Positions 7,803 through 62,853 of a DNA stretch of 64,000 nt are shown in pieces. The stretch spans positions 35,917 to 99,916 of the forward strand of contig JAUYBE010000016.1 in the NCBI GenBank assembly GCA_030693235.1, in the 5' to 3' direction. Position 1 is the first letter of the stretch. The number at the start of each line of letters is the position of its first letter. The stretch is from a bacterium (GTDB lineage Bacteria; Patescibacteriota; Minisyncoccia; UBA6257; UBA9933). Under the pieces are notes generated by a model. It made no database searches and was not told the DNA's origin. It saw only the letters and a list, made by a program, of their open reading frames with translations. The translations under genes were made by a program, and so were the position numbers.

Positions 7803-8837
7803 TTATCGTTTAAAATTTTTCAATTCCTCTTTTATTTCGTCAAGCGAAAGAAGCAACTCTTTTGTTTCGTCATTGGATAATCTTTTGGTATTAGCCGAAG
7901 TATAACCTTCGTGCGGCAAATGATTATTTTTCTGCCCCTTAGAATAATAATTTTTATAGTCCATTTCCGGAACTTCCGGCATTATTTTATAATAATCGCC
8001 GCAATCTTCTGCTCGAAAAGTTTCCTCGCTGGAAATCAAAGTTTCATGCATTTTTTCGCCCGGTCGGATGCCGATTTCTTGAATTCCTTTATTATAATTA
8101 AAAATTTCCACTAAAACTTCGGCCAAATCGCCGACAGTGGCGGCAGGCGCCTTTCTGACATAAATTTCTCCGTCTTTACCGTTGAGCATCACGTATAAAA
8201 CCAAATCCACGGAATGAGCTAATGGCATCATAAAGCGAGTCATATTTTTGTCAGTAATCGTCAATGGCTTGCCGGCTTTCATTAAATCAATAAAATAAGG
8301 AATAACTGAGCCGCGAGTATACATCACATTGCCGTAACGCGTGCCGCACAAAACCGTCTTCCCTCTTTTCTCCCGGGAAATAGCAATCATTATTCTTTCC
8401 ATCAACGCCTTTGTCATCCCCATAACGTTTATCGGATAAACCGCCTTGTCCGTGCTTAAAACCACAACTCGCTCTACGCCGCGCTGAATCGCCGCGTCAA
8501 TGACATTATGAGCGCCCAAGCTATTGGTTTTAATCGCTTCCAAAGGAAAAAATTCGCAATTCGGCACCTGTTTAAGAGCGGCCGCGTGAAAAACATAATC
8601 AACGCCGTACATAGCGTGAAAAATAGCATCTCTATCCCGAACATCGCCAATAACAAATCTTAGCCTGTCATCATTGTATTTATTCCCCATATCAAACTGT
8701 TTTTTCTCGTCACGGCTGAAAATAATGATTTTTTTGGGATTATACTGCAACAATTTATCAACCACCGCATTGCCAAAAGAACCCGTGCCACCAGTTATTA
8801 AAATCGTTTTATTTTCTATGGCGTTTTTATAACCCAT
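7803..8837 (-). CDS. UDP-N-acetylglucosamine 4,6-dehydratase/5-epimerase (FnlA/CapE/WbjB family)
   Basis: KTILITGGTGSFGNAVVDKLL...IIIFSRDEKKQ...HAAALKQVP...MGMTKALMERIM, the classic polysaccharide biosynthesis CapD/FnlA pattern. Confidence 0.85.
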   Translation of the reverse strand: MGYKNAIENKTILITGGTGSFGNAVVDKLLQYNPKKIIIFSRDEKKQFDMGNKYNDDRLRFVIGDVRDRDAIFHAMYGVDYVFHAAALKQVPNCEFFPLEAIKTNSLGAHNVIDAAIQRGVERVVVLSTDKAVYPINVMGMTKALMERIMIAISREKRGKTVLCGTRYGNVMYTRGSVIPYFIDLMKAGKPLTITDKNMTRFMMPLAHSVDLVLYVMLNGKDGEIYVRKAPAATVGDLAEVLVEIFNYNKGIQEIGIRPGEKMHETLISSEETFRAEDCGDYYKIMPEVPEMDYKNYYSKGQKNNHLPHEGYTSANTKRLSNDETKELLLSLDEIKEELKNFKR

Positions 8838-8867: not shown

Positions 8868-8960
8868 TCAATTTCCGCGAGATTTGGTTTTCGTTTCATA
8901 AATTTTCGCGTCCACCAAAAACCTATACCAAAAACCTTGCAAAAAGTTGTTTTTTTTTAT
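8868..8960 (-). pseudogene. remnant of a GT2 glycosyltransferase C-terminus (paralog of the 12817-13707 C-terminus)
   Basis: The minus-strand frame reads FLQGFWYRFLVDAKIYETKTKSRGN-stop, against the intact GT2 C-terminus HFLQGCWYRFLVDAKLYEAKNKSKQ. There is no start codon. An upstream T9/A9 homopolymer lies at 8950-8958. Confidence 0.4.
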
Positions 8961-10987: not shown

Positions 10988-12085
10988 CTATTGTGAAGTA
11001 TTACCCTGCGAATCAACCGCTCTTGCTCGCCATTTATAATCTCCATCTGTTAAATTAGATTTTGTAATAACCGCTTCGCTGCCGGAGTTTACAAAATTGC
11101 TTTCTATTAAATTTTGCTCGTTAAATGGTTGATTAAATTCTTTGAGTTCTATTTGAAGTTTAGCTTGGTCATTATTTGGATCATTAAGAACGGTTTTAAA
11201 AATTACGGTTGAATCAGTAGTGATTGTATTTTCAATGATTTGAGTTTGGCCGTCGGATTTAAATTGTCCAAGATTGGAAATAGCCGGCGGCTGATTCAAC
11301 GGAGAAACTGCTAAATTGTAATAATAAGCAATTTCTTCGGCTGAACGAGCAACTTTGGAAATTCTGATTTCGTCAATTATGCCCTGCATTCTCCCTTGAG
11401 AACTTTGATAACCTCCGCCCCAAGTATGACTATTAATGTATAAAGGATCAGGAGTAGTAACTATTAAATTTGGAGAATAAGTACTTACTGCTTCTAATAT
11501 ACCATTAACATAAACCCTAGAATAACTCCCATCATAAGTAGAAACTACATAATACCACTGATTAGGTTCAAACCAACGAGTACTAATAGACGCGCCACCA
11601 AAATTACCGTTAAAATTCAATTGATTAAAACTAGTTGCACTTGCGCACCAACCTTCTTGATTTCGCATAATCTTTAAACTATAAGCATTGCTTTCGTCTC
11701 CCTTGCCCTTCTGGACGAAAGATTCATTATTTGCCCAGCATCCTAAATCAAACCCCGTAGGATAAACCCATGCCTCAATAGTAATTTGAGACAAATCTCT
11801 TAAAGAAGGATTGTCAGGAACAGTAATATAATCACCAATACCATTAAAATATCTGGCTTTGCCGAATTTACCATCTGTAATTGTCGTACCAATGGCAGTT
11901 CCATTATTTACTCCGGTTTCATCGGTTACTGTGGTGCCGAAAATATCATTAAATCTCCACAAGGCAACCGTATCTGCGTCAACGTTGAATAAATTTTGAG
12001 GGCTTACAACTTGAGCATTAACAAAATCAAAATAAATAATACTTAACGATAAAATAATAAAGATAAATATAAATTTTTTAAACAT
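10988..12085 (-). CDS. secreted LamG-like (concanavalin A-like lectin/glucanase fold) protein, probably the N-terminal part of a larger hydrolase interrupted by an amber codon
   Basis: Signal peptide MFKKFIFIFIILSLSIIYFDFVNA, then the LamG-type jelly-roll pattern (GKARYFNGIGDYITVPD...ITIEAWVYP...YVNG). Ends in TAG at 10988-10990, in frame with the downstream ORF. Confidence 0.55.
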   Translation of the reverse strand: MFKKFIFIFIILSLSIIYFDFVNAQVVSPQNLFNVDADTVALWRFNDIFGTTVTDETGVNNGTAIGTTITDGKFGKARYFNGIGDYITVPDNPSLRDLSQITIEAWVYPTGFDLGCWANNESFVQKGKGDESNAYSLKIMRNQEGWCASATSFNQLNFNGNFGGASISTRWFEPNQWYYVVSTYDGSYSRVYVNGILEAVSTYSPNLIVTTPDPLYINSHTWGGGYQSSQGRMQGIIDEIRISKVARSAEEIAYYYNLAVSPLNQPPAISNLGQFKSDGQTQIIENTITTDSTVIFKTVLNDPNNDQAKLQIELKEFNQPFNEQNLIESNFVNSGSEAVITKSNLTDGDYKWRARAVDSQGNTSQ

Positions 12086-12114: not shown

Positions 12115-12729
12115 TTAATTTTTTTCCGCTAAAACAAAAATTGAATGAGAAATTGGATAAATTCGACCGTAATAACCAATTTTAACGGGCGTTAAATTGT
12201 TTTTATTTAATAAATCCAATAATGTCTTTTTAGAAAAGAACCTAATATGTGCGCCAGTCGGATTAAAATGTTTATTAAAAGCAAAAAATGTAATTAATAA
12301 ATTCTTAATAAATCCATGATAGGGAGTCGTAAATAATACTTTCCCGTCGGGCCGCAAAACGCGCGCAATTTCTTTAAAAGCGTTTTCGGTATCATAAATA
12401 TGTTCAATAACCTCCGAAGAAAAAATAAAATCAACGGAATTATCTTTTACTGGAAATTTTTCACCGTCGTTAACTTTATAAAATTCAACGTCTGACAAAT
12501 CTTTTTCCGCCTGTTCTATTGCTGTTTCAGAAACATCTAATCCGATTAATTTTGCCTTTTGATTTATTTTCTTAATTTCTCCCAAGATTTTCCCGTTGCC
12601 GCAACCAAAATCAACAATCATACTGCCTCCCAATGGAATAAATTTTTTTAATTTAGGCCATTTAAGCGAAAAGTCGCTTAAATAATCATTTTGCCCTTCC
12701 CAATAATTTTCATAAAATTGCTTAGTCAT
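12115..12729 (-). CDS. class I SAM-dependent methyltransferase
   Basis: MIVDFGCGNGKILGEI (motif I) ... VDFIFSSEVIEHI ... LRPDGKVLF. Confidence 0.75.
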   Translation of the reverse strand: MTKQFYENYWEGQNDYLSDFSLKWPKLKKFIPLGGSMIVDFGCGNGKILGEIKKINQKAKLIGLDVSETAIEQAEKDLSDVEFYKVNDGEKFPVKDNSVDFIFSSEVIEHIYDTENAFKEIARVLRPDGKVLFTTPYHGFIKNLLITFFAFNKHFNPTGAHIRFFSKKTLLDLLNKNNLTPVKIGYYGRIYPISHSIFVLAEKN

Positions 12730-12816: not shown

Positions 12817-13707
12817 TTATTGCTTTGATTTATTTTTTGCTTCATAAAGCTTCGCGTCAACCAAAAACCTGTACCAACATCCCTGTAAAAAATGAAATAT
12901 CAAGCCTTCTTTGCCGTCTAAAAACCCCAAACGGAAAAAATAGCGATAAATAAAATATAGAAAAACTCGTAAAAATTTAGGGAATTTATAATAAAAATTT
13001 CTTTTTTTACCGGCGCCGTAATCTTTTCTTAATACGTCTTCCGCTTCGCGGCTGGAATAATTATTATGCTTGGCAATCCAATCCGCTAACGGCTTTTTAT
13101 TATCGTCAATAAAATCATTTTTCAATTTTTCCGCTTTTCCTTCCGATAGAATAATGTGTTCATCCATCGCGCGTTGTTCCGAGCGCGCTTTGCCCTTCTT
13201 AAAAAGCCGCAAAATCCAAGTCGGATAATATCCGCCGTGTTTTATCCAGCGTCCCATAAAATATACGCGGCGTTTCATATAATAGCCGTTAATTTTTTGG
13301 ACATCCGATGTCCTAACATTAACGTCAATATTTGGGACATCTGATGTCCCCATATTGAACAATGTTTCGCCAATTTCTTGTTTAAGTTCTTCTGTCAAAT
13401 ATTCATCCGCGTCCAAGCGTAAAATCCACTCATTTTTAATTTTCAAATTATCCAGCGCCCAATTGAATTGCTGGGCCTGATTCTCAAATTTATGCTGAAC
13501 TACCTTCACAGACCCACGCTGACTGTCCGCGTTGGTCCGCGTTAAGTCCGCGTTAGTCAGCGCTTTGGCGATTTCCAAAGTTTTATCAGTGGAATAAGAA
13601 TCAACAACAAAAATCTCATCCGCCCAATCAGCGATATTTTTCATTAACCGCTCAATATGAATTTCTTCGTTGTAAGTTAAAATTATTATTGAAAGAGGAA
13701 TTTTCAT
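12817..13707 (-). CDS. glycosyltransferase family 2 carrying two in-frame repeat insertions
   Basis: IIILTYNEEIHIERLMKNIADWADEIFVVDSYSTDKT...RLDADEYL (DxD). Repeat family 2 at 13299-13350 encodes TSDVPNIDVNVRTSDVQ. Repeat family 3 at 13521-13563 encodes LTRTNADSQRGSV. Confidence 0.8.
   Translation of the reverse strand: MKIPLSIIILTYNEEIHIERLMKNIADWADEIFVVDSYSTDKTLEIAKALTNADLTRTNADSQRGSVKVVQHKFENQAQQFNWALDNLKIKNEWILRLDADEYLTEELKQEIGETLFNMGTSDVPNIDVNVRTSDVQKINGYYMKRRVYFMGRWIKHGGYYPTWILRLFKKGKARSEQRAMDEHIILSEGKAEKLKNDFIDDNKKPLADWIAKHNNYSSREAEDVLRKDYGAGKKRNFYYKFPKFLRVFLYFIYRYFFRLGFLDGKEGLIFHFLQGCWYRFLVDAKLYEAKNKSKQ
13299..13350. repeat. twin-palindrome element, family 2 (GGACATCCGATGTCC ... GGGACATCTGATGTCCC), in-frame in GT2
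   Basis: Two near-identical 15-17 nt perfect palindromes separated by taacattaacgtcaatattt. A second copy lies at 30949-30999. Confidence 0.7.
13521..13563. repeat. GTCCGCG/GCGGACT-type oligomer repeat, family 3, in-frame in GT2
   Basis: gactgtccgcgttggtccgcgttaagtccgcgttagtcagcgc. Related runs lie at 32521-32622, 33015-33060, 34072-34155, 39381-39462 and 47111-47152. Confidence 0.6.
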
Positions 13708-13718
13708 AAATTTTTCGT

Positions 13719-14771
13719 TTACTTAAAATAATTTTCAGCCGCGAATTTATATTGCTGAATAAATAATTCTTTAAATGCCCTGATATTATTTTGTTCATAA
13801 AAAAGTATTGTTGTTTTTTTGTAATCCGCTTCATCAACGCTTCTGTAAGAAAGCGGACAAATATTATGCGCTAAAAGAATGGCATTCCCGACAAGTCGCG
13901 CCGTTCTTTTATTGCCGTCTTCGAAGGGTTGAATATAAGACATCAAAAGCACCGCAATAAGCGCTTTTACGAAAGGATTTGACATTTTATTTATCAATGC
14001 TGTCGCGTTTTCCATTGCTTCACGCAATTGATATTCATTATCCAACGGCTTATATTTCGCGCCGACAACGCCAACGGCACGTTTTCTTATGTTATAAGAA
14101 ACATTTAATCCGGCAACCAATAAACGATGAATATCGCTTATTTTTCTAATTGTTATTTTTTTAAAATCGCTTTTATTGGCGAAAATATAATCAAGCGCTT
14201 TTTTGTGATTTAGAATCATTATCGCCTCTTCTTTTTTGTGCCCCCTGGCTTCTTTGCGCTCTTTAATAAGAATCTCCGTGTCTATCAAAGAATAAGTATT
14301 GCCTTCTATTTGAGAAGATTTCCAACTCAATTCAATCGTCAATCGCTCAAATTCTTTTTTTAAAATCGCCGGAGATAATTTTTTGATTCTTTTAATATAA
14401 TCATCTTTTATTTTTTGCAAATCAGCTAATTCATCTTCGCTTAAAATATTATTCAAGTCTTTAAAAACGCCGAAATTAAATCTTTCAAAAGCCACCCGCC
14501 TTTCATCCGGTCCTTTTTTAAAATATTCATCAATATCAATATAACCAAGCAATTTGCTTTCAACGGCTTCCTGATAATAGACCCCTCGGCCTTTGCCGAT
14601 TTTTTTAATCAATCCGTTATTCGCAAGAATATTGATATCTCTGACAACAGTAATTCTGGAAAGTTCTCCGAATATTTTTTCCGCATAATTTTTAATTTCT
14701 TTATTGCCGGCTTTCCCGCTTTTTCTAATAAATTCAAGAATTTTAAATTGACGAGCAGTTAATTTTTCCAT
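13719..14771 (-). CDS. Fic/DOC (Fido) family protein with N-terminal winged-helix; degenerate Fic motif
   Basis: The core motif reads QPFEDGNKRTAR in place of HPFx(D/E)GNGRxxR, so the catalytic His is replaced by Gln and the second Gly by Lys. The N-terminal KILEFIRKSGKAGNKEIKNYAEKIFGELSRITVVRDINILANNGLI resembles a wHTH. Confidence 0.7.
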   Translation of the reverse strand: MEKLTARQFKILEFIRKSGKAGNKEIKNYAEKIFGELSRITVVRDINILANNGLIKKIGKGRGVYYQEAVESKLLGYIDIDEYFKKGPDERRVAFERFNFGVFKDLNNILSEDELADLQKIKDDYIKRIKKLSPAILKKEFERLTIELSWKSSQIEGNTYSLIDTEILIKERKEARGHKKEEAIMILNHKKALDYIFANKSDFKKITIRKISDIHRLLVAGLNVSYNIRKRAVGVVGAKYKPLDNEYQLREAMENATALINKMSNPFVKALIAVLLMSYIQPFEDGNKRTARLVGNAILLAHNICPLSYRSVDEADYKKTTILFYEQNNIRAFKELFIQQYKFAAENYFK

Positions 14772-14808
14772 CTTTTTATAATTGTATCATTATTTATCAA
14801 TAATTGTA

Positions 14809-14907
14809 TCATTTTGATACAATAAATACAACGATGTTTTTCAATAACCGCTCAATATGAATTTCTTCATTGTAGGTTAAAATTATGACGCTGACGGGGA
14901 GTTTCAT
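14809..14907 (-). pseudogene. truncated duplicate of the GT2 (12817-13707) 5' end
   Basis: Translates MKLPVSVIILTYNEEIHIERLLKNIVVFIVSK-stop, 32 aa. Nucleotides 14833-14888 match 13633-13688 at high identity. Confidence 0.6.
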
Positions 14908-14909
14908 AT

Positions 14910-15614
14910 TTAATATTTTTTATTTCTATTTTTAATTGTTTTTGTCACCCAATCATCCAATAAATCGCAGTTTGGAATAATGCAATGACCGCCGATTTTA
15001 CCGGACATTGCTCTTAAAATCGGCCGAATAACATTTAATTTGCCTAATTTTCTGTACCCCTCATTATAATCTTGATTGGCGATTGTATAAGCTTCATCAA
15101 AATCCAATTTTAATTTATCACTTATTCTTTTTACTTCTTTGGCAAAAATTATATTCCAACCATAATAAGTCGTGTCTAAAATTTTTAGCAGCTCTGTGGT
15201 TTCCGACTTTTTAAAACGCTTTGTTTTTATGCCTATTTTTGAAAAATATCGCGCCGCTTCTTTGGCTTTTTCTCCGCCGAAATATTTTACAAAAGTTTTA
15301 ATCCCTTTTTCCAAGCGGGGATGCACGCCGCGAACAGGGCTATGCACGGCAAAAGAAGATATTTTTTGCGTTGTCCCGACAGGAATTGTTGAATGAATTA
15401 TAACTAACTTAGGATTATATTCCTTAATATAATTTTTAGTAATATTTATAAAATTTTTAACGGGGGGATAACAAATGTGCAGAATATCAAAATCCCCTTT
15501 TAAATCGCTGTCTTTATCTCTAATAGAAATATCATAATGCTTTTTTAAAACATTAAAGAGAGCGCTCCCTATTTCTCCCCTGCCTATAATTAAATGTTTT
15601 TTATTTTTTTTCAT
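14910..15614 (-). CDS. hypothetical NAD(P)-binding protein with UDP-glucose/GDP-mannose dehydrogenase-like motifs (short form)
   Basis: IIGRGEIGSAL Rossmann motif, DILHICYPP, and a C-terminal GGHCIIPNCD resembling the GGxCxPKD catalytic-Cys motif. At 234 aa it is much shorter than canonical UGDH. Confidence 0.3.
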   Translation of the reverse strand: MKKNKKHLIIGRGEIGSALFNVLKKHYDISIRDKDSDLKGDFDILHICYPPVKNFINITKNYIKEYNPKLVIIHSTIPVGTTQKISSFAVHSPVRGVHPRLEKGIKTFVKYFGGEKAKEAARYFSKIGIKTKRFKKSETTELLKILDTTYYGWNIIFAKEVKRISDKLKLDFDEAYTIANQDYNEGYRKLGKLNVIRPILRAMSGKIGGHCIIPNCDLLDDWVTKTIKNRNKKY

Positions 15615-48997: not shown

Positions 48998-49081
48998 TGC
49001 CGAGGGAGGGACTCGAACCCTCAAGGGCTTGCGCCCGTAACATTTTGAGTGTTATGCGGTTGCCAATTTCGCCACCTCGGC
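48998..49081 (-). tRNA. tRNA-Leu (anticodon CAA)
   Basis: Reverse complement gccgagg...taaca-ctCAAaa-tgtta, long variable arm cgggcgcaagcccttg. Acceptor gccgagg/cctcggc, discriminator A. Confidence 0.8.
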
Positions 49082-49128
49082 TAAATTTTCATTGATAATA
49101 GCACAATTTTCTCTTATAGTAAAGAATT

Positions 49129-49890
49129 ATGACTCGCGTTATCGCAATCTGTAATCAAAAAGGCGGCGTTGGAAAAACAACTGCCGCTATAAATTTATCA
49201 ACTTATTTGGCGGTTTTGGGTAAAAAAGTTTTACTGATTGATTTTGACCCACAAGCCAACGCCACCTCGGGACTGGGAATAAATCCCAAAGAATTAAACG
49301 ACACTGTTTATCACGGCATCTTGGGATACGCCTCAATTGAAAATTTAATCAAGAATACGAAAATTTTTAATCACCATTTAATTCCGGCGAATCAGCATTT
49401 AGCCGGCGCTTTGGTGGAATTGGTCAATCTGGACGAGCGGGAATTTTTTCTTAAAAAATTCATAAACCGGCTCCGGCCTGAATACGATTATATTTTTATT
49501 GATTTGCCCCCTTCTTTGAGTTTGTTAACCGTCAATGGTTTAGCCGCCAGCGACGAAGTTTTAATTCCCATTCAATGCGAATATTACGGGCTTGAAGGCT
49601 TAGGCCAACTTTTGGAAACCGTTGACATGATTAACAATAATTTAAACCAAAATATTAAAATTGCCGGAGCGTTATTAACGATGTATGATAAAAGAGAAAA
49701 ATTGTCGCGGGAAGTGGCTTTTGAGGTCAGAAAACATTTTCCGCATTATGTTTTTGAAAATGAAATCCCCCGCTGCGTGTCATTGGCCGAAGCGCCGAGT
49801 TTTGGAAAACCGATTATTTTATATAATCCCGGTTCCAGCGGCGCCATGGCCTATGAAAGACTGGCGAGGGAAATAATTGGACGAGAATAA
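49129..49890 (+). CDS. parA: ParA/Soj chromosome-partitioning ATPase
   Basis: IAICNQKGGVGKTTAAINL deviant Walker A. 253 aa. Confidence 0.85.
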   Translation: MTRVIAICNQKGGVGKTTAAINLSTYLAVLGKKVLLIDFDPQANATSGLGINPKELNDTVYHGILGYASIENLIKNTKIFNHHLIPANQHLAGALVELVNLDEREFFLKKFINRLRPEYDYIFIDLPPSLSLLTVNGLAASDEVLIPIQCEYYGLEGLGQLLETVDMINNNLNQNIKIAGALLTMYDKREKLSREVAFEVRKHFPHYVFENEIPRCVSLAEAPSFGKPIILYNPGSSGAMAYERLAREIIGRE

Positions 49891-49891
49891 A

Positions 49892-49960
49892 GTTTTTAGG
49901 TTTTAGTTTTTAGGTTTTAGTAAATTTCTAACACCTAACACCTAACACCTAACACCTAAA
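49892..49960. repeat. heptamer-array element, family 4, filling the entire parA-parB spacer
   Basis: (tttttagg/ttttag)x4 - taaatttc - (taacacc)x4. The two halves can pair as an imperfect hairpin, with GUUUUAG against CUAACAC. Confidence 0.6.
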
Positions 49961-49963
49961 TAA

Positions 49964-50947
49964 ATGTTAGGCAAAGGACTGGAATCTTTAATTCCAAAAA
50001 AACAAAACATTCAGTCTCCTCAACAAGGCCAACAAATCGACTCCAACGAAAAGCCGGCGGAGGGCGCTGATGCTTTTCGCGCAGCAACTCCTGTAAATAA
50101 GCCGGCGGCCAAAGACGCCATCTTTTATATTGAAACGGAAAAAATCAAACCCAATCCCCATCAACCACGCCGAGATTTCAACGAGGAATCTTTAAAAGAA
50201 TTGGCAAACTCCATTCGAGAACATGGTATTCTTCAACCCCTGATCGTTTCCAAAATTGAAAAAGAAACCGAATTCGGAACTAAAGTAGAATATCAATTAA
50301 TCGCTGGCGAAAGACGATTAAGAGCTTCTCAAATAGCGGGATTGGAAAGTGTGCCGGTAATTATTAAAAATATCGTTAAAGATGCCGAGCATCTGGAAAT
50401 GGCGATTGTTGAAAATCTGCAACGCGCTGATTTAAATCCGGTTGAAACCGCCCGGGCTTACGCCAAACTGCAAGATGTTTTCGGCTTGACCCAAAGAGAG
50501 GTCGCTCAACGCTTGGGCAAAAGCCGGGAAACCATTGCCAATACTTTAAGGCTTTTAAATCTGCCGACGGAAATTCAAGAAGCGGTTGCTAAAAATCAAA
50601 TCAATGAAAGCCAGGCGCGGTTGCTTTTGACGATTGGCGACCAAATTCAACAACAAAATCTTTTCAATGAAATTATTTCCAATAATTTAAGCGTCCGGGA
50701 ATTGCGACAGCGAATTCGGAAAACTTCACCCGTCATTGCGAGCGCAAGCGAAGCAATCTCGCCTATTGTTAATCCTGAAATCCTTAATTTTCAAGAACAG
50801 CTCACCGAACTTTTAGGAGCTAAAGTGAAAATTAAACCCTTCGGCAATGCTCAGGGCAAAGGCGGAGAAATTATTATTGATTTTTATTCGGCGGAAGAAA
50901 TTGAAGGAATAATAAAAAAACTTTCTCCGGAAAATAATTTGGAATAG
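49964..50947 (+). CDS. parB: ParB/Spo0J partition protein carrying a family-1 half-element in-frame
   Basis: LQPLIV...LIAGERRLRASQIAG, HTH. SPVIASASEAISPI is encoded by half-element 50732-50760. Confidence 0.85.
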   Translation: MLGKGLESLIPKKQNIQSPQQGQQIDSNEKPAEGADAFRAATPVNKPAAKDAIFYIETEKIKPNPHQPRRDFNEESLKELANSIREHGILQPLIVSKIEKETEFGTKVEYQLIAGERRLRASQIAGLESVPVIIKNIVKDAEHLEMAIVENLQRADLNPVETARAYAKLQDVFGLTQREVAQRLGKSRETIANTLRLLNLPTEIQEAVAKNQINESQARLLLTIGDQIQQQNLFNEIISNNLSVRELRQRIRKTSPVIASASEAISPIVNPEILNFQEQLTELLGAKVKIKPFGNAQGKGGEIIIDFYSAEEIEGIIKKLSPENNLE

Positions 50948-50961
50948 AGAATTTTTGTGTG

Positions 50962-51032
50962 TGGAGGTGCGGAGAATCGAACTCCGGTTTGATCAATGCG
51001 AATGACCCGTTATACCACTTAACTACACCCCC
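50962..51032 (-). tRNA. tRNA-Ala (anticodon CGC)
   Basis: Reverse complement gggggtg...ggtca-ttCGCat-tgatc. Acceptor GGGGGTG/CACCTCC gives the G3:U70 Ala identity pair. Discriminator A. Confidence 0.7.
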
Positions 51033-51165
51033 CCCTATTCTGCTATAATATAACGAGGTAATTAAAAAATCAAAAGGGGTGAATAAAAATACCAACTCGC
51101 TTTTCCGTCGCCGCCAAATTTTCCGCCAGAGACAGACAGGCGTGTCAGCGAATCTGACGCGCCGC

Positions 51166-51894
51166 TTATTCTTTTGCTCTCGCCTTAATTTTTAATTTCT
51201 CTGGCAACTTCTCAATAGCATACCTCAAAGCTGTGCGAGGCATTAACTTTCTATTTTTGATTACAAAATCAAAAACCTCTTTCTGATGTAAATTACTTGC
51301 TTCCTTTAACATCCAACCATAACCTTTCTGCGCTAAATCTTCCTTATCTTGTAAAAGAATTTTTGCCGCACTAAAAGCTTCTTTTAAATATTTTCCTTTG
51401 CGCAGAGAATAGATTAAGACTACAGCGGAAGCACGGCGAAACCATTTATTGGATGATTTGGCCCATTGTTTTGTTTGTGGCAAAAATTCCGGAAATTGGC
51501 ATATAAATTCTCCAAAAGCGTGCGTACATAAATCATCACAACTGCCCCAAGTATCTACGTAGTTTTTGAGCCAGCTTTCAAAAATTTTATAATCCTCTTT
51601 CTGATATTGCTTTCTGATTCTGAAAGCCCAATCAAATGCGATGTCCCGATAACCGCTTCCATTAATTTTTAATAGTTTTTCGCATAAAGAAAAAATTTGC
51701 TTCTTTTCAAGATTTTTTACTTCTTTAAAATTTTTGAAAGCTACTTTTCTTACCAACGGAGTGGCAATGCCGATATGTATTTTGCCATCCTTGTGAAATT
51801 TTGAATAATCCTTAATGTTCTTAGGATTTTTACACAACTTTTTTAACTCAAAACTAATTTTTTCTAAAACATTTACAGTCCCCATACTTTCCAA
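51166..51894 (-). CDS. DNA alkylation repair enzyme (AlkD-like HEAT-repeat glycosylase family)
   Basis: 242 aa all-helical. Pattern ...RKVAFKNF...WAFRIRKQY...WGSCDDLCTHAF... is typical of the DNA_alkylation family. Confidence 0.6.
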   Translation of the reverse strand: MESMGTVNVLEKISFELKKLCKNPKNIKDYSKFHKDGKIHIGIATPLVRKVAFKNFKEVKNLEKKQIFSLCEKLLKINGSGYRDIAFDWAFRIRKQYQKEDYKIFESWLKNYVDTWGSCDDLCTHAFGEFICQFPEFLPQTKQWAKSSNKWFRRASAVVLIYSLRKGKYLKEAFSAAKILLQDKEDLAQKGYGWMLKEASNLHQKEVFDFVIKNRKLMPRTALRYAIEKLPEKLKIKARAKE

Positions 51895-51964
51895 TTTTTA
51901 GGAAAAGTTAATCCCAAAGTTCTGGAATAAACAATCAATTCGCCTTGGTGCAAGATTTCATAAT

Positions 51965-52122
51965 CTACTTTATTAAATCATCAACCAAAACCTCTAATGC
52001 TTTGGCGATTTTAGTTAAGGTTTTAATTGTAGGATTTTGATTAACGCCGTTTTCTATTTTTACAATGGTATTTAGCGATAAATCAACAAAATTTCTTTAA
52101 TAGCAATTTATCCTAAAGACAT
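51965..52122 (-). pseudogene. degraded XRE-family HTH regulator
   Basis: Minus strand reads ATG-MSLG-TAA, then in a shifted frame IAIKEILLIYR-stop, then ...LNTIVKIENGVNQNPTIKTLTKIAKALEVLVDDLIK-stop. Together this is the MSLGxxIKELR...IENGxxNPxxxTLxKIAKALxV..DDL pattern of Cro/C1-type HTH proteins, broken by stops. Confidence 0.45.
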
Positions 52123-52189
52123 CTATCCCTTGAAAAACGCTAATGAAAAATTGAAAGAAAAATTTAAAAATTTTCTAAATGGCTAATTG

Positions 52190-52260
52190 TCGGGCCGCCC
52201 GGATTTGAACCGGAGCTAAATCCTCCCGAAGGACTCGTGCTACCGCTACACTACGGCCCG
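52190..52260 (-). tRNA. tRNA-Pro (anticodon CGG)
   Basis: Reverse complement cgggccg...agtcc-ttCGGga-ggatt. Acceptor C1:G72 (cgggccg/cggcccg), discriminator A. These are bacterial Pro identity features. Confidence 0.7.
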
Positions 52261-53084
52261 ATATTAATTATGGTTATTGCGATTTGTTCTCCATAAAATA
52301 TTTGAGATAAATTTTTGACCCTTTCCGAATCCTCTGTTGTCAGAAAAATTCTCTTGCCGGTTTTTGATAATTTATTTTCTATTTCCGGATGCCGCGCCAA
52401 ATAATTCCTTAATTTCTCCGCGATAATCGGTCCCTGAGAAATCACCTTAATGCCTAGCGACAAATATTTTTTAATTTTATCTTCAATAATCGCGTAATGG
52501 GTACAGCCCAAAATAATCGTATCAATTTTTCGACTTTTTGAGAATAGCTGATTTAAATATTTTTCAATCGCCAAATCCAAATTTTTCTGTTCAATCTCGC
52601 CGGCTTCAATAATCGGAACTAAAAGCGGGCAAGCCTGCTGATAAACTTTAATTTCAGGAAAAAATTTATTAATTTCTTTTTGGTAAGTCAGGGAATTAAC
52701 CGTCGCCTCTGTAGCCAATACTCCAATTTCTCGCGTGTTCGTAAATCTGCCAATTTCTTCGGCAGTCGGAATAATGATGCCAAGAACTCGCTTCTCAGAA
52801 TAGTGCTTCTGTAGAAATTCCCGCTGAATTTTTCTTAAAGCCGCGCTTGAAGAAGTATTGCAAGCCAAAACCACCAATTCCGCGTCGCGCCTAAATAATT
52901 CCTCAACGCCTTCAACGGTAAATTTATAGATTATTTCCTGACTTCTTGAACCATAAGGAGTCCGGGCGTTGTCGCCTAAATAAATATAAGAATATTCCGG
53001 CAAAATTTTAACAACCTCTTTTAGAATTGTTAAGCCGCCGAGTCCGGAATCAAAAAAACCAATCATAAAATTAGTATAAATCAA
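52251..53084 (-). CDS. murI: glutamate racemase
   Basis: IGFFDSGLGGLTILKEV...LVLACNTSS...ILGCTHYA. Confidence 0.85.
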   Translation of the reverse strand: MIYTNFMIGFFDSGLGGLTILKEVVKILPEYSYIYLGDNARTPYGSRSQEIIYKFTVEGVEELFRRDAELVVLACNTSSSAALRKIQREFLQKHYSEKRVLGIIIPTAEEIGRFTNTREIGVLATEATVNSLTYQKEINKFFPEIKVYQQACPLLVPIIEAGEIEQKNLDLAIEKYLNQLFSKSRKIDTIILGCTHYAIIEDKIKKYLSLGIKVISQGPIIAEKLRNYLARHPEIENKLSKTGKRIFLTTEDSERVKNLSQIFYGEQIAITIINIGP

Positions 53085-53159
53085 TTCATTCTATCTCGCC
53101 AACCAAATTAGCATGCTCTAACCCAATAGAGCGCTCTATCGCGATAGAGCGGTAGAAAA

Positions 53160-53196
53160 ATAAAAAAGAGGATAAAAAACTTTATCCTTTTTTAGT
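53160..53196 (-). terminator. bidirectional rho-independent terminator downstream of cca
   Basis: gaggataaa-aaac-tttatcctc hairpin with T-runs on both strands. An adjacent perfect palindrome atagagcgctctat/ctatcgcgatag lies at 53126-53152. Confidence 0.6.
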
Positions 53197-53264
53197 AAAT
53201 ATAAAAATACTTATTAATTATTTACTATCCTATCCTGACGATCGTTTAGATAAGATAGTGATTC

Positions 53265-54788
53265 TTATTTCACGTAAAATTTCTTTTTCATTTCTTCTTC
53301 TATTCCTGATTCAAATTCTTCTTTCTTTCCCCTGCTAATTTTGGCTAATTTTTCAAGCTCAATATCCGACAACTTCCCTAAATCCTGAATCCTGAATTCT
53401 AAATTCTCCTTCGTATTCTTTTCGGGATTTTCAATAACTTCGTCCAACAAAACGGACAAAATCCGACCCACTCGCGGGCCCGGCTCTATGCCCAAAATTT
53501 TCATCACATCCTCTCCGTTGACTTTCAGCATTTTCGGCGAAATCGGGTCTTGCTTCACTTTTTCAATCATAAAAAGCAAGTGCCGCAGTTTATATGGCAC
53601 GGCTTTGGGCACACCCGAACCGATTCTATCCGCTTCCCTGATTTTTATAAAATCATCGACATTTTCCGGACCGACGCGCGCCAAAAATCTGCGCACTCCG
53701 GCTTCGGAGACTTCGCCGACATTGTAATAAAAAAGGTGATAACGAACCAAATGAATAATTTTTTCCGCCAAATCTTTCGGGAAACGAAGCCTATCTAAAA
53801 TTTCGGCGGCTAATTTTGCGCTGACTATTTCGTGATTGTAAAAAGTGCAATCAAGCCCTTCGCCGACTTTGGTCGCCGGTTTGCCGATATCGTGCAAAAG
53901 CGCCGCCAATCGAATTTCCAAAGAATAATTTTTCTTGGCGGCGTAATCCAGCGCTTTTAAATTATGTTCCCAGACCGTGTAAATATGATGCTTATTCTGG
54001 CCGACGCCGATGCCGTCGCGGAGTTCCGGCGCGATAAACCGCAACAAACCCAAATCTTCCAATAATTGAATTCCTGAAACCGCCTTTTCAGCCATTAAAA
54101 TTTTAATAAACTCATCGCGGATTCTTTCTTTGGCAATCATTTCCAACAAACCGGCTTGTTTTTTGACCGCCACGGCGGTCTTTCCTTGTATTGAAAAATC
54201 CAGTTCCGTCGCAAATCGAACGGCTCGCATCAACCTTAAAGCGTCTTCATTAAAACGATCTTCGGGATTGCCGACGGCTCGAATTATTTTATTTTTAATA
54301 TCATCTTGGCCGTTAAAGGGGTCTACTAATTCAGGTTTTAGGTTTTGGGTGTTAGGTTTTAGAGCGATAGCGTTGATAGTAAAATCCCGTCTGCCTAAAT
54401 CTTCTTCAATTGTTTCGGCGAATTTAATTTCATCGGGGTGGCGCTTGTCAGTATATTTTCCTTCTATTCTGAATGTTGTAATTTCTATGATTTTTAACGA
54501 TTCATTATCAGAGCCGGTCTTAACACCAACGGTGCCGAATTTATTTTCATAAACGGTGGCAGGCTTGTCCGCCGTAGCTCCGGCGAAGGTGGAAAAAATC
54601 TTTTGAATTTCTTCGGGTTTTGCGTCGGTGGCAACATCCCAATCTTTCGGTTCCCGCCCCATTAATAAATCGCGAACGCAGCCGCCAACCAAATAAGCAT
54701 TATAGCCGCTAGCCACTAGTTTATTAGCCACTAAAATAATTTCTTCGGGAATACTTGCCCTGAATTTTACTGAAGGGTTGAAATTCAT
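53265..54788 (-). CDS. cca: CCA tRNA nucleotidyltransferase (Pol beta head + HD domain) with heptamer-array-encoded insertion
   Basis: GGCVRDLLMGREPKDWDVATDAKPEEI, RRDFTINA, HD motif LHDIGKP. ALKPNTQNLKPELV is encoded by array 54332-54366. Confidence 0.8.
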   Translation of the reverse strand: MNFNPSVKFRASIPEEIILVANKLVASGYNAYLVGGCVRDLLMGREPKDWDVATDAKPEEIQKIFSTFAGATADKPATVYENKFGTVGVKTGSDNESLKIIEITTFRIEGKYTDKRHPDEIKFAETIEEDLGRRDFTINAIALKPNTQNLKPELVDPFNGQDDIKNKIIRAVGNPEDRFNEDALRLMRAVRFATELDFSIQGKTAVAVKKQAGLLEMIAKERIRDEFIKILMAEKAVSGIQLLEDLGLLRFIAPELRDGIGVGQNKHHIYTVWEHNLKALDYAAKKNYSLEIRLAALLHDIGKPATKVGEGLDCTFYNHEIVSAKLAAEILDRLRFPKDLAEKIIHLVRYHLFYYNVGEVSEAGVRRFLARVGPENVDDFIKIREADRIGSGVPKAVPYKLRHLLFMIEKVKQDPISPKMLKVNGEDVMKILGIEPGPRVGRILSVLLDEVIENPEKNTKENLEFRIQDLGKLSDIELEKLAKISRGKKEEFESGIEEEMKKKFYVK

Positions 54789-54833
54789 TGTTTTTAATTA
54801 TAAACTAAAAATTACGAACTATAAACTAATTTT

Positions 54834-54905
54834 GCCCTCGTAGTCTAATGGATAAAACGCGAGCCTTCGAAGCTCGATTTGGGGGTTCGAGTCCCTCCGA
54901 GGGCA
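54834..54905 (+). tRNA. tRNA-Arg (anticodon TCG)
   Basis: gccctcg...cgagc-ctTCGaa-gctcg...ttcgagt...cgagggc, discriminator A. Confidence 0.75.
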
Positions 54906-54911
54906 CATAAA

Positions 54912-54984
54912 GCGCCCATAGCTCAGTTGGCAGAGCAATTGCCTCTTAAGCAAAAGGTCCCAGGTTCGAGCCCTGGTGGGCGCA
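54912..54984 (+). tRNA. tRNA-Lys (anticodon CTT)
   Basis: gcgccca-ta-gctcagttggcagagc...ctCTTaa...ggttcgagccc...tgggcgc, discriminator A. Confidence 0.8.
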
Positions 54985-54990
54985 CAAAAA

Positions 54991-55200
54991 ATGATTAAAA
55001 AAACATTAATTTTTATAATTATTTTATTTGCTTTACTTGGCCTGTATTTTATTTATAATTATTTTATTCAGCCGAGTAGTGAAGCGCCGATTGAAATAAA
55101 TAATGGTCAAATTCAAGAAATTCCAATAAGCGACGGCTTTCGAGGACCAAGCGGTTCGCCTTCAATAAAAGGCCCGAGCGGTCCACCGCCGGAAAATTAG
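54991..55200 (+). CDS. small hypothetical secreted/membrane protein with Gly-Pro-rich tail
   Basis: MIKKTLIFIIILFALLGLYFIY signal-anchor, GFRGPSGSPSIKGPSGPPPEN tail. May not be expressed. Confidence 0.3.
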   Translation: MIKKTLIFIIILFALLGLYFIYNYFIQPSSEAPIEINNGQIQEIPISDGFRGPSGSPSIKGPSGPPPEN

Positions 55201-55229
55201 GTGTTAGGTTTTAGTTTTTAGTTTAAATT

Positions 55230-55303
55230 GCGGGTGTAATATAGTGGTAATATACGTGCTTGCCAAGTACGATACGAGGGTTCGATTCCCTTCACCCGCT
55301 CCA
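55230..55303 (+). tRNA. tRNA-Gly (anticodon GCC), CCA encoded
   Basis: gcgggtg...cgtgc-ttGCCaa-gtacg...ggttcgattccc...cacccgc-t-cca. Confidence 0.8.
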
Positions 55304-55332
55304 GAAACTAATTAATCTCTCATTCGTTTTAT

Positions 55333-55878
55333 ATGTTAGATGGCGAAAAACAACTAATTGAACGAGCCATTAGAGGTGAGGCCTCGGCTTTTGGCCTGCT
55401 TTACGATAGATATCAAACGCAGATTTACAGATTTATTTATCTTAAGGTCAGCCATCGTGAGGAGGCCGAGGATCTCACTCACCAGGTATTTTTGAAAAGC
55501 TGGCAGACTATCAGCGGATATAAATTTCAAGGACTTCCTTTTTCCAGTTGGCTTTACAGAATTGCCAGAAACCAGGTTATTGATTATTACCGCACCAAAA
55601 AAAATAATTTAAATATTGAAGAAATAAGCGAATCAAAAATTGATGATTCGTCCATTGAGGTAATTGAAATCCTTGACGATAATTCAAACGTTAAAAAAAT
55701 CAAGGAGGCCATTAAACAGCTTAATCCCGGACATCAAGACGTTATAATTTTAAGATTTATTGAAGAGTTGTCGCTTAAAGAAACCGCCTCGGCTTTGAAA
55801 AAAAGCGAAATGGCGGTTAAATTGCTCCAACATCGAGCTATAAAAAATTTAAAGAAAATTTTAGGAAACAATGAATAA
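55333..55878 (+). CDS. RNA polymerase sigma-70 factor, ECF subfamily
   Basis: Region 2 (LYDRYQTQIYRFIYLKVSHREEAEDLTHQVFLKSW...FSSWLYRIARNQVIDYYR) and region 4 (LSLKETASALKKSEMAVKLLQHRAIKNL). Confidence 0.8.
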   Translation: MLDGEKQLIERAIRGEASAFGLLYDRYQTQIYRFIYLKVSHREEAEDLTHQVFLKSWQTISGYKFQGLPFSSWLYRIARNQVIDYYRTKKNNLNIEEISESKIDDSSIEVIEILDDNSNVKKIKEAIKQLNPGHQDVIILRFIEELSLKETASALKKSEMAVKLLQHRAIKNLKKILGNNE

Positions 55879-56356
55879 AAATTTATTGGAAAATTTAAAA
55901 GAGCTTCGTCAAATTCAACCCGATTCCAACTATACAACGCGGTCTCGATTTTTAATACTCGCGGAACCGACCGCAACCGAAAATTTACCGGGATTTAAAA
56001 TAACGCAAATTTACAAACCGGCGTTCGCGATAGGATTAATCAGTATCTTTGTTTTAATGGCGCTTGGAGGCATTTATCAAATAATCAAACCGGGCCAAAA
56101 CGATTTAGTGGTCAGAGCCAACGAGATCAACAGCTCTATTCAAGTGAAATTAGATGAAATTAAATATCTTATTGAGAATAATAATCATCTCAACGCGGAA
56201 AACATTCTCAATATTCAAGCTTTGTTGGAAAAAACGACCAATGAGCTCAAAGAAGCTTCAATTTTAAGCCAAGAGAATAAAGATTTGGGAAAATCCTTGG
56301 AAAAAATAAAGTCCGCTCAAGAAATTCTTCTCCAAATCGACGCGATGCTTCAATAA
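55871..56356 (+). CDS. putative membrane-anchored anti-sigma factor
   Basis: 8-nt overlap with the ECF sigma gene. Single TM helix (AFAIGLISIFVLMALGGIY) and an extracytoplasmic coiled region. Assignment is by gene context only. Confidence 0.4.
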   Translation: MNKNLLENLKELRQIQPDSNYTTRSRFLILAEPTATENLPGFKITQIYKPAFAIGLISIFVLMALGGIYQIIKPGQNDLVVRANEINSSIQVKLDEIKYLIENNNHLNAENILNIQALLEKTTNELKEASILSQENKDLGKSLEKIKSAQEILLQIDAMLQ

Positions 56357-56392
56357 AAAATCCCGCCTGAAAAACAAGGCGGGATTTTTTAT
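56357..56392. terminator. bidirectional rho-independent terminator between the anti-sigma gene (+) and HU gene (-)
   Basis: aaaaaatcccgcc-tgaaaaacaa-ggcgggatttttt. Confidence 0.75.
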
Positions 56393-56398
56393 TGAAAT

Positions 56399-56674
56399 TT
56401 ACTTCACCGCGTCTTTAAGCGCTTTGCCTGCTTTAAATTTCGGCTTTATTGAAGCCGCGATTTGAATTTTTTCTCCGGTCTTGGGGTTAATTCCCATCCG
56501 AGCCGCTCTTTTCATCACTTTGAAAGCGCCGAAACCGGTGATCGCCACTTCTTCGCCGCGAGCCAATGTTTTGGTAATTGTATCAAAAAACGCTTCAACG
56601 GTTTCGGCGGCTTGTTTTTTCACTTCTATGCCGGTGGCTTTCATTATTGCCTCGATAAATTCTGCTTTGTTCAT
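56399..56674 (-). CDS. hup: HU-family DNA-binding protein
   Basis: MNKAEFIEAIMKATG...AITGFGAFKVMKRAARMGINPKTGEKIQIAASIKPKFKAGKALKDAV. Confidence 0.85.
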   Translation of the reverse strand: MNKAEFIEAIMKATGIEVKKQAAETVEAFFDTITKTLARGEEVAITGFGAFKVMKRAARMGINPKTGEKIQIAASIKPKFKAGKALKDAVK

Positions 56675-56682
56675 TTAATAAT

Positions 56683-56750
56683 TAGGTGTTAGGTGTTGGG
56701 TGTTGGGTGTTAGAATTTACTAAAACCTAAAAACTATAACCTAAAACCTT
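56683..56750. repeat. heptamer-array element, family 4 (inverse orientation of the parA-parB copy)
   Basis: (aggtgtt/gggtgtt)x4 - agaatttac - taaaacctaaaaactataacctaaaacc. Followed at 56805-56835 by a gtcaa(n) array. Confidence 0.6.
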
Positions 56751-56846
56751 ACTATCCTCGACCTTTGGTTTAAGTATGTCAAATTATATAGGAAAAGTCT
56801 ACCTTTTTATTGTCAATCGTCAACAGTCAAAAGTCAATAGTTTTCA

Positions 56847-58373: not shown

Positions 58374-58467
58374 AAATTAAATTGTCCGCTAACTTCTTCA
58401 TAATATTGAATTCGTTAGGAACCGTTAATTCTTTACGATAAATCAATTATAATGCTAAAATAAAACA

Positions 58468-62759: not shown

Positions 62760-62769
62760 ATTATTCTGG

Positions 62770-62853
62770 TGCCGAAGGAGGGACTTGAACCCTCAAGCCC
62801 TTGCGGGCACAGCGTTCTGAACACTGCGTGTTTGCCAATTTCACCACTTCGGC
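62770..62853 (-). tRNA. tRNA-Leu (anticodon CAG)
   Basis: Reverse complement gccgaag...cagtg-ttCAGaa-cgctg (one G-U pair), long variable arm cccgcaagggc. Acceptor gccgaag/cttcggc, discriminator A. Confidence 0.75.

Follow-up and report, generated by a model that had tools for sequence, protein, structure and literature searches.

A 350-aa protein with a helix-turn-helix (HTH) and a Fic domain is encoded between a short 5′ fragment (stub) and an intact copy of a family 2 glycosyltransferase (GT2) gene, within a cluster for the sugar coat, in a 64,000-nucleotide stretch of a Patescibacteriota genome (contig JAUYBE010000016.1, positions 35,917 to 99,916; referred to as the window). Its Fic domain carries Gln at the position of the catalytic His, and we refer to the protein as HTH-Fic(Q). 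Overall, the protein is probably an autorepressed Gln/Lys-variant HTH-Fic, and its gene probably stands foremost in a segment of DNA that entered a GT2 gene by recombination, at a recurrently used slot, a reading that we hold with moderate confidence. The direct repeat, the 32-aa stub, the 350-aa Fic gene, the perfect palindrome and the repeated box listed in a first-pass annotation of this region were all found in the sequence.

The protein matches the Pfam Fic model PF02661 over residues 206-299 (E 3.4e-12) and human FICD in a phmmer search (E 8.5e-12), and is a member of the Fic/Fido superfamily. In the alignment to FICD, QPFEDGNKRTAR falls on HPFIDGNGRTSR of FICD, with Gln at the position of the catalytic His, and the second Gly of the motif is replaced by Lys, as in Doc. 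The canonical AMPylating motif HxFx(D/E)GNGRxxR with its catalytic His is absent. Loss of the His had been proposed in the first-pass annotation and no His appeared on realignment; a misaligned motif or hidden His was ruled out by the FICD alignment and by alignments of the family. N-terminal to the Fic core, SSQIEGN conforms to the (S/T)xxxE(G/N) inhibitory motif of class II Fic proteins. The AlphaFold model (mean pLDDT 89.5) predicts an N-terminal domain of the order helix-helix-helix-strand-strand, a winged helix with its recognition helix around S38-R39-I40-T41, and this is followed by a linker and the class II Fic core. The top Foldseek matches were FICD, Caenorhabditis elegans Fic-1, BtFic (3cuc) and SoFic (3eqx), at E values of ~1e-9 and root-mean-square deviations of 2.4-2.8 Å over ~244 columns, so class II Fic proteins are the closest among solved structures. 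NCBIfam holds no family-level model for this protein and gave only weak matches to SoFic/NmFic and Csa3-type HTH models. The best match in the defence libraries was the PADLOC model for SoFic (E 4.8e-22), which covers residues 122-305 only.

A search of a collection of 5.8 billion proteins with the window Fic sequence returned at least 8000 candidates, all with E ≤ 0.001. The best 120 of these are 61-100 % identical to the query, nearly all are about 350 aa long, and the sources named among them are Patescibacteria. The motif Q[P/M/L][F/L]xDGNKRxxR is present in all 120 and His in none, and WKSSxIEGN was found in 115. Residues Q281, D285, G286, N287, K288, R289 and R292, together with E156, G157 and N158, are invariant in an alignment of 30 sequences. 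HMMER, run exhaustively over 1.84 billion cluster representatives, yielded 260 sequences at E ≤ 1e-30, and the best 150, which were inspected, share 31-59 % identity with the window protein; 113 of the 115 that include the motif have Gln at the His position and, again, none has His. Relatives are also encoded at 543 places in a set of species-representative genomes.

The family is very large and mostly from Patescibacteria, with thousands of metagenomic copies. It consists of solitary single-gene units whose product joins a winged helix at the N-terminus to a class II Fic domain, with the active-site motif Q-P-F-x-D-G-N-K-R-x-x-R instead of HxFx(D/E)GNGRxxR. Because the Gln motif is conserved down to ~31 % identity, it represents the selected state of an old family and not recent decay, and the description of this active site as degenerate has to be abandoned, as both Q..DGNKR..R and the inhibitory helix are conserved family-wide. 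A conserved partner gene was not found among 274 flanking open reading frames (ORFs) from 73 loci, which fell into 234 clusters, the largest with five members. Hence, there is no adjacent conserved antitoxin of the kind that defines two-gene toxin-antitoxin systems (class I, FicTA-like), and the suggestion that the protein might be an antitoxin-like member of a pair finds no support in these loci. Nothing specific to this HTH-Fic(Q) family in Patescibacteria was found in the literature.

The spacer upstream of fic contains a perfect palindrome, TTGTATCA-AAAT-GATACAA (14804-14822), with no second perfect copy anywhere in the 64 kb, and a direct box, AATGATACAATT, that occurs twice (14780-14791 and 14802-14813, 22 nt apart). 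A degenerate half-site, ATCGTTGTATTT, lies to the far left (14824-14835), and TGATACAAT can also be read as an extended -10 element. The TGA stop codon of the stub ORF falls within the distal operator box, and the last seven codons of the stub are fic promoter region. No convincing further copies of the operator were found in the window. The 110 nt upstream of the fic gene were compared for 80 loci from the species-representative genomes, taken from the 543 places. (The window and the loci of its relatives make up the set of loci studied; relatives are numbered L001 and so on, and coordinates that follow such a number are those within that locus.) For nearly all of the 78 homologues examined, the order is an AATTGTnnCA-AAAT-GnnACAATTA palindrome, a second TGnnACAAT box and the ATG, and the homologues sharing this layout are in unrelated gene contexts. 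Of 56 loci, 45 have the second box 22 nt downstream. A -35-like hexamer with at least four of six matches precedes the distal TACAAT by 16-18 nt in 35 of 75 loci (background, 15 %), and this enrichment indicates that the palindrome overlaps a promoter. A simple promoter and terminator scan was uninformative, with match counts equal to the shuffled expectation in AT-rich DNA.

The bases of the box vary with the residues of the recognition helix. When the third position of the S-R-x-T segment is I, V, L or A, the box is GATACAAT (39/41 loci). With F at this position it is GC(T/A)ACAAT (9/9) and with M it is GTTACAAT (4/4), and where SKxT replaces SRxT the box contains ACGAT or ACGCT in about six of seven loci. 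The F, M and K states each appear in at least two separate places on a rough neighbour-joining tree. Two paralogues found ~15 kb apart on contig CAYOHI010000005.1 (L028 and L033) have different pairs, namely DRTT with GCTACAAT and SRIT with GATACAAT, as would be expected if their specificities are insulated from one another. Hence, the palindrome and boxes are very probably a family-wide promoter/operator recognized by the winged helix of the Fic protein, which agrees with the earlier suggestion that the spacer repeats could be an operator. The co-variation points to autoregulation, and the case for binding of the winged helix to the promoter of its own gene is fairly strong, if indirect. The combination of a DNA-binding domain with a likely cognate site at its own promoter is that seen in CccR (see below). 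In one locus, the Fic promoter/operator region is duplicated downstream of fic, ahead of the next gene (L029:6090-6199).

The direct repeat that brackets fic consists of 80 nt (13629-13708 and 14829-14908) that are 81 % identical and offset by exactly 1200 nt, with a core of 55-58 nt that is ~93 % identical. The downstream copy is the first 75 nt of the intact GT2 gene (13633-13707) and the upstream copy is the start of the stub ORF, of which codons 1-25 (14833-14907) correspond to the GT2 5′ end (84 % in tblastn over GT2 residues 1-25). The stop codon of the upstream gene, which encodes a 234-aa nucleotide-sugar-dehydrogenase-like protein (DH234), is 2 nt ahead of the stub ATG, the intact GT2 gene starts 11 nt past the fic stop codon, and the ORF list includes no ORF other than fic between the stub and intact GT2. 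A second, independently assembled genome of this organism (L170) has the same gene order, which excludes an assembly artefact, and the order recurs in related lineages. A foreign base composition was not detected for fic (GC content 0.33; 0.31-0.39 for its neighbours).

The two GT2 sequences are different alleles that diverged long ago. Between the stub and the intact GT2 gene of the window, the synonymous divergence (pS) is 0.51 and the non-synonymous divergence (pN) 0.11, and unrelated GT2 orthologues resemble the intact copy as closely as the stub does. Relative to the intact GT2 gene of L168, the stub has 10 synonymous and no non-synonymous differences. As only synonymous differences were found in this comparison, the stub is the relic of another GT2 allele that was functional until recently. 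These values also rule out a fresh target-site duplication in the window.

Among 80 loci containing orthologues of the GT2 gene, recovered from metagenomes, 59 had at least 1.3 kb visible upstream and fic was present in only one, which belongs to the L001 lineage. Hence, fic is an acquisition at this GT2 locus. This part of the proposal in the first-pass annotation, that a fic cassette was acquired within the GT2 5′ end, stands (58/59 loci lack fic), but the part that has the insertion itself create the duplication does not (pS 0.51). In relatives, the canonical order is GT4-(DH234 or methyltransferase)-GT2-FnlA-P243, and the order without fic, GT4-DH234-GT2-FnlA, is found in L154, L158 and L139. 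This is the order that remains in the window when everything between the stub and FnlA is removed.

A second GT2 fragment was found at the other end of this segment. About 25 codons and the stop codon of a GT2 3′ end are present 30 nt ahead of the FnlA-like gene, and the distance to the 5′ stub is 5.9 kb. This is the canonical place for a GT2 3′ end, as GT2 directly precedes FnlA in more than 30 related loci. With about 25 codons left at each end, neither stub includes a complete GT-A domain, and Pfam finds nothing in the 32-aa ORF. Given the 3′ stub, the unit that disrupted the resident gene need not be the 1.2-kb fic segment alone; fic was acquired, but a larger block or a two-step history is suggested in place of insertion of only a fic cassette. 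The simplest reading is that about 5.9 kb of DNA took the place, in a single step or in two, of the interior of a resident GT2 gene flanked by DH234 and FnlA. This DNA would be made up of the operator, fic, the present GT2 gene and the genes for a methyltransferase, a LamG-domain protein, a 420-aa protein (P420) and a 195-aa protein (P195), with fic at the leading edge. GT2, the methyltransferase, LamG, P420 and P195 genes are contiguous in L105 and L107. From the positions of the two stubs, the methyltransferase, LamG, P420 and P195 genes probably arrived by recombination, either with fic-GT2 or separately. No GT2 3′ stub was found within the visible DNA of L001, L007, L112 or L101. The features of the window are listed in Table 1.

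Table 1. Features of the fic-GT2 region of the window. All genes at about 9-21 kb of the window are on the minus strand (ORF list)
Feature	Position (nt)	Strand	Basis or remark
FnlA/CapD-like dehydratase gene	7803-8837	minus	Resident downstream flank
GT2 3′ stub, FLQGFWYRFLVDAKIYETKTKSRGN followed by stop	8868-8948	minus	tblastn, GT2 residues 272-295, 75 %, E 5e-7
P195 gene, 195 aa	9085-9672	minus	
P420 gene, 420 aa	9683-10945	minus	
LamG-domain protein gene	10988-12085	minus	
Methyltransferase gene	12115-12729	minus	
Intact GT2 gene, 296 aa	12817-13707	minus	Pfam PF00535, E 4.1e-14
HTH-Fic(Q) gene, 350 aa	13719-14771	minus	ORF list, Pfam PF02661
Fic motif variant QPFEDGNKRTAR, residues 281-292	13896-13931	minus	Alignment to human FICD
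Inhibitory-helix motif SSQIEGN, residues 152-158	14298-14318	minus	Aligned to FICD TVAIEGN
Predicted N-terminal winged helix, residues ~1-70	14562-14771	minus	AlphaFold model
Probable fic promoter/operator	14772-14835	minus	Layout common to homologues
Stub ORF, 32 aa, MKLPVSVIILTYNEEIHIERLLKNIVVFIVSK	14809-14907	minus	ORF list
DH234 gene, 234 aa, nucleotide-sugar-dehydrogenase-like	14910-15614	minus	Resident upstream flank; ORF and Pfam

The intact GT2 gene of the window has two in-frame, repeat-containing insertions (13273-13341 and 13525-13562) relative to the 259-aa orthologue in L001. They include ...TNADLTRTNADSQRGS... and ...TSDVPNIDVNVRTSDVQ..., and short tandem DNA repeats such as GTCCGCGTT. 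Similar inserts with TSDV repeats are present in the GT2 orthologues of L091 and L097, and this is apparently a variable loop. Elsewhere in the window, Rfam identified seven tRNA genes (48998-62853), three of them clustered at 54834-55300, and a search of the window and of the repeat-bearing loci with Rfam found only tRNAs.

The fic genes of the three closest homologues of the window Fic (L001, L167 and L168) are likewise found between a GT2 stub and an intact GT2 gene. However, the junctions are not the same. In the window, the stub next to DH234 ends at codon 24-25. In L001 (Fic 78 % identical to that of the window), the upstream neighbour is LamG and the stub ends at codon 27, and in L167 (83 %) the stub ends at about codon 10, with the upstream neighbour outside the visible DNA. 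In L168 (79 %), the upstream neighbour is ManC and the stub is from a different type of GT2. A single inherited junction for the GT2-linked loci was excluded, both by the various stub ends (codons 10, 20, 24-25, 26, 27 and 29) and by the stub derived from the different GT2 type. When the window and L001 are compared, Fic, GT2 and the flanking genes have diverged to a similar extent (59-78 % amino acid identity). In L167, an insert of ~150 nt between the fic stop codon and the GT2 ATG (L167:1138-1298) is bounded by a perfect 18-nt inverted repeat, CCCACACATAACTTACAA / TTGTAAGTTATGTGTGGG, and looks like a miniature inverted-repeat element.

The combination of a GT2 stub and an intact GT2 gene was also found in loci without fic. 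In L091 (1087-2100), a GT2 stub is followed by a Fic-type operator, TTGTTTCATAATGATACAA, and then by a 78-aa ORF and a gene for an AbiEii toxin (Pfam E 1e-18), and it appears that one cassette has been exchanged for another behind the same putative promoter. An RHH/RelE-like pair is located just upstream of this stub-operator-AbiEii unit. In L092 and L101 (3213-4001 in both), the stub is followed by a reversed pair of DUF2204 nucleotidyltransferase genes, and a complete Fic-type operator, with palindrome and second box, directly precedes the ATG of the intact GT2 gene; a fic ORF is missing. Here, fic appears to have been lost precisely, leaving GT2 behind a presumed orphan operator. L097 (202-1367) has a 20-codon GT2 stub, genes for a MerR-type HTH/ATPase-like protein (242 aa) and a 101-aa protein, and an intact GT2 gene. 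There is no Fic operator at this position in L097, which is an independent use of the GT2 slot. A duplicated arrangement lacking fic is what the first-pass annotation had named as grounds for refutation, and its occurrence in these loci ties the arrangement to the GT2 slot and not to fic, which counts against the original interpretation of the duplication as the mark of fic insertion. The GT2 5′ end is a recombination slot in which toxin-antitoxin-like cassettes are gained, exchanged and lost. A 3′ fragment of a GT4 gene (45 aa) and a 5′ fragment of a methyltransferase gene (41 aa, 72-75 % identical to the methyltransferase of the window) are present in L001 (2044-2347), and gene stubs are evidently common scars in these glycan clusters, independent of fic.

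Beyond the GT2 slot, high-scoring direct repeats flank 8 of 72 Fic genes and 2 of 125 control genes (p=0.005), and both of the control genes lie in repeat-separated cassette arrays. Flanking repeats of 29-240 nt surround fic in unrelated targets in L012, L070, L064, L076 and L072. In L012, the repeat is 63 nt long (98 % identity) and represents the beginning of a gene that belongs to an atp operon. In L070, it is 44 nt long (95 %) and represents the start of a gene whose product begins MPELPEVQTV and is Fpg/MutM-like, judged by the N-terminus alone. The repeat in L064 is a terminator-like hairpin. Some of these repeats look like true duplications. No terminal inverted repeats, shared core or fixed length were seen among them. 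As HTH-Fic is the only ORF and there are no terminal inverted repeats, the unit does not have the make-up of an insertion sequence, a transposon or an integron cassette.

Fic(Q) genes were also found in cassette arrays. The array in L030 (3675-8350) begins 5 nt past a tRNA gene and HTH-Fic(Q) is its first cassette; it also includes a canonical His-containing Fic with a C-terminal winged helix (SoFic-like), DUF3800 and a transglutaminase-like gene. Five copies of a ~56-nt repeat (..ATCGGGATGG..GAACACAACTAGACATAGTTTTGA) separate the cassettes, and the repeat is also present in another genome (L020:4916-5056). No integrase was visible in this array and the repeat has no match in Rfam. In L057 (3168-7593), four copies of a 115-nt repeat, composed of a terminator-like hairpin and a promoter-like segment, separate single cassettes, and HTH-Fic(Q) is located between an AbiE-like pair (assigned by sequence similarity to the AbiEii of L091) and another Fic. 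The contig in L015 (1-3901) begins and ends with the same 742 nt, giving a period of 3159 nt, and the unit includes HTH-Fic(Q), a small ORF with a GIY-YIG-like N-terminus (by sequence) and a 202-aa ORF. Possible readings are a small element, either circular or repeated in tandem, and an effect of assembly.

The anatomy of the locus, the conservation of the motif, the conservation and co-variation of the operator, the absence of fic from most orthologous loci and the age of the repeat are established from the sequences, and the mechanisms set out next are proposals. Through its winged helix, the protein would bind the palindrome and the additional half-sites, elements overlapping the fic promoter, and so repress its own transcription, and the fic promoter probably also drives the window GT2 gene located 11 nt downstream. 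As D, N, K/R, R and the inhibitory Glu show no variation, the Fic(Q) domain has most probably retained Doc-like nucleotide binding, though this is the step of which we are least confident. The domain would serve as the ligand-sensing or slow-acting effector part of a toxin-antitoxin-like or defence-like selfish module, and a canonical His-dependent AMPylase is unlikely. DNA carrying operator-fic and its own GT2 allele would have recombined into the resident GT2 gene of a glycan cluster. The incoming DNA may have included the next four genes, or these may have been brought in by a second event. Homology-anchored recombination in which one end is illegitimate is the likeliest mechanism. It would leave the 25-codon 5′ stub and the 25-codon 3′ stub of the resident gene, and the variable stub ends, the resident-type stubs and the incoming intact allele fit it.

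Several points weigh against this scheme. The boxes resemble extended -10 elements and their conservation could in part reflect promoter and not operator function. The case for DNA binding, repression and nucleotide binding is comparative, and the tree used for the co-variation is a rough neighbour-joining tree. The invariance of all catalytic residues except the His could equally mean that the protein is an enzyme with a new chemistry, in which Gln acts as a weak base, and the toxin-antitoxin or defence role draws on anecdotal neighbourhoods. The recombination mechanism is deduced from four related loci and a few dozen substitutions. The 5′ and 3′ stubs may stem from different genes or different events. 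Finally, the copies in L012 and L070 are 95-98 % identical, which looks more like target duplication, and one mechanism may not fit all loci.

Different explanations for the operator and for the protein were also considered. With its perfect 8-bp stem and loop of 3-4 nt, situated between the upstream operon and fic, the palindrome could form an RNA hairpin, either a terminator for the upstream operon or an element of the 5′ untranslated region. We regard this as very unlikely, as the stem is short and AT-rich with no T-run after it on the coding strand, the palindrome is imperfect in most loci and Rfam finds nothing there. In addition, the direct-orientation boxes, which are unable to pair, change jointly with the palindrome arms and the recognition helix, and a protein-binding DNA site is therefore favoured. 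That fic encodes a decaying or inactive pseudo-enzyme without function, its motif changed on the way to loss of the gene, is hardly credible. The catalytic His is missing and fic has apparently been lost from L092 and L101 while the operator was kept, but hundreds of genomes carry the ORF intact and at full length, a confident structure is predicted, and the invariance of the motif, the inhibitory helix and many further columns over a range of 31-100 % identity effectively refutes decay. A dedicated transcription factor of the glycan cluster is a somewhat better candidate, though still an unlikely one. Here, the operator would be the regulated promoter of GT2 and the genes downstream, and the Fic(Q) domain would sense a nucleotide or nucleotide-sugar and so tune synthesis of the surface glycan. 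The position of fic 11 nt upstream of GT2 and in the same orientation is consistent with this role, as are the operator directly ahead of GT2 without fic in L092 and L101 and the duplicated operator region ahead of the next gene in L029. In 58 of 73 loci, moreover, the downstream gene has the same orientation as fic, and the gap is often ≤17 nt. However, the family is linked to GT2 only in the four closest loci, and the window contains no other operator copy. As the neighbours elsewhere are unrelated, any glycan role would be local and secondary.

How the gene arrived can also be explained in another way, namely that the 1.2-kb operator-fic unit is itself a mobile element and the GT2 repeat is either a long target duplication or the product of an excised circle that integrated in the Campbell manner. 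In that case, the HTH-Fic(Q) protein might take part in its own movement. Flanking repeats at independent loci with unrelated targets, enriched relative to control genes, favour mobility, as do the 95-98 % identity of the copies in L012 and L070 and the right edge of the insert, which is 0-13 nt past the fic stop codon. The 742-nt terminal overlap in L015 would fit a circular or tandem 3.16-kb unit that includes fic. However, the repeat copies in the window are different alleles of considerable age (pS 0.51). The repeats vary in length and lack both terminal inverted repeats and a core common to the various targets, and there is no transposase or integrase. The same GT2 stub geometry is found with unrelated cassettes, and both of the repeat-flanked control genes belong to repeat-separated cassette arrays. 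We know of no action of Fic domains on DNA. On this evidence, a mobile 1.2-kb unit is improbable. A more extreme form, in which operator-HTH-Fic(Q) is a minimal autonomous mobile cassette and the Fic domain performs phosphoryl transfer on DNA or recruits host recombination, is extremely improbable. If it were true, the gene would insert beside host genes while regenerating their 5′ ends, and both the flanking duplications at unrelated targets and the invariant, His-less ‘catalytic’ constellation would be explained.

Recombination into the GT2 slot of DNA that includes an autorepressed HTH-Fic(Q) gene remains the preferred explanation, and the findings are of interest for three reasons. The family keeps every active-site residue of Fic proteins save the catalytic His and is a natural test of what the Fic fold can do without its base, the options being nucleotide sensing, slow or Doc-like chemistry, or pure binding. 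Operator specificity is apparently set by one or two residues of the recognition helix (I/V for A, F for C, M for T, and R to K for A to G), and this code could supply orthogonal repressor/operator pairs. The third reason concerns the candidate phyla radiation, in whose genomes the conserved start of this GT2 gene serves as a landing pad for toxin-antitoxin-like cassettes that leave dated stubs. None of these findings overturns current views. HTH-Fic autoregulators, a Gln-containing Fic clade and recombination scars in glycan clusters were already known and the feature in the window is a variation on these.

Fusions of Fic and HTH domains have been noted previously (PMC2686095), and for a protein of this kind, CccR of Yersinia pseudotuberculosis, repression of its own promoter was shown experimentally (PMC9755527). 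CccR has a C-terminal HTH and a catalytic His (His192), AMPylates FtsZ and is secreted by the type VI secretion system (PMC9755527). The window Fic similarly combines a class II-type Fic fold and an HTH in one polypeptide and probably represses its own promoter, but the winged helix is N-terminal, Gln replaces the His and there is no secretion context. The clade ‘D2’ was defined in silico by Khater and Mohanty (2015) from 45 mostly single-domain sequences with the consensus Qx[F/Y]x[D/E][G/V]NKR, found only in bacteria and grouped with Doc, and the Lys in GNKR is a Doc-type substitution (PMC4454073). QPFEDGNKR of the window fits this consensus (Gln for His, Lys for the second Gly), a membership judged by the motif alone. 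However, the family described here differs from ‘D2’ in its N-terminal winged helix, inhibitory helix and class II Fic fold, and in having thousands of members, mainly in Patescibacteria. Doc of phage P1 (phd-doc) is a small single-domain kinase of EF-Tu that keeps the His, and its binding to the operator needs a separate antitoxin, Phd. The NKR motif variant is shared with the window Fic, which would also be an autoregulated selfish module, but the absence of His, the length of 350 aa, the fused winged helix, the class II proteins as nearest structures and the lack of a partner set it apart from Doc-type kinases.

SoFic is a single-gene anti-phage defence system (PADLOC model; PMC12249575). 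It shares the class II Fic fold and inhibitory Glu with the window Fic, and in the L030 array a Fic(Q) cassette is found beside a SoFic-like one. Unlike the window Fic, SoFic has the canonical His motif and a C-terminal winged helix and acts by AMPylation. The type IV toxin-antitoxin system AbiEi/AbiEii likewise has a winged-helix autoregulator and a selfish, defence-type character, and an AbiEii cassette occupies the same GT2 slot behind a Fic-type operator in L091, while an AbiE-like pair adjoins Fic(Q) in L057. However, it consists of two genes, with a nucleotidyltransferase toxin and no Fic fold.

Recombination that is anchored by homology and has one illegitimate end is known from competent bacteria, and gene-cluster shuffling is known in surface-polysaccharide loci (O-antigen, capsule). 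The former, homology-facilitated illegitimate recombination, was reportedly described by de Vries and Wackernagel in 2002. Some loci of the Fic family differ from this pattern in that they resemble true duplications. What the GT2 slot would share with it is a conserved gene that serves as a one-sided anchor, an illegitimate other end and stubs that derive from the resident allele.

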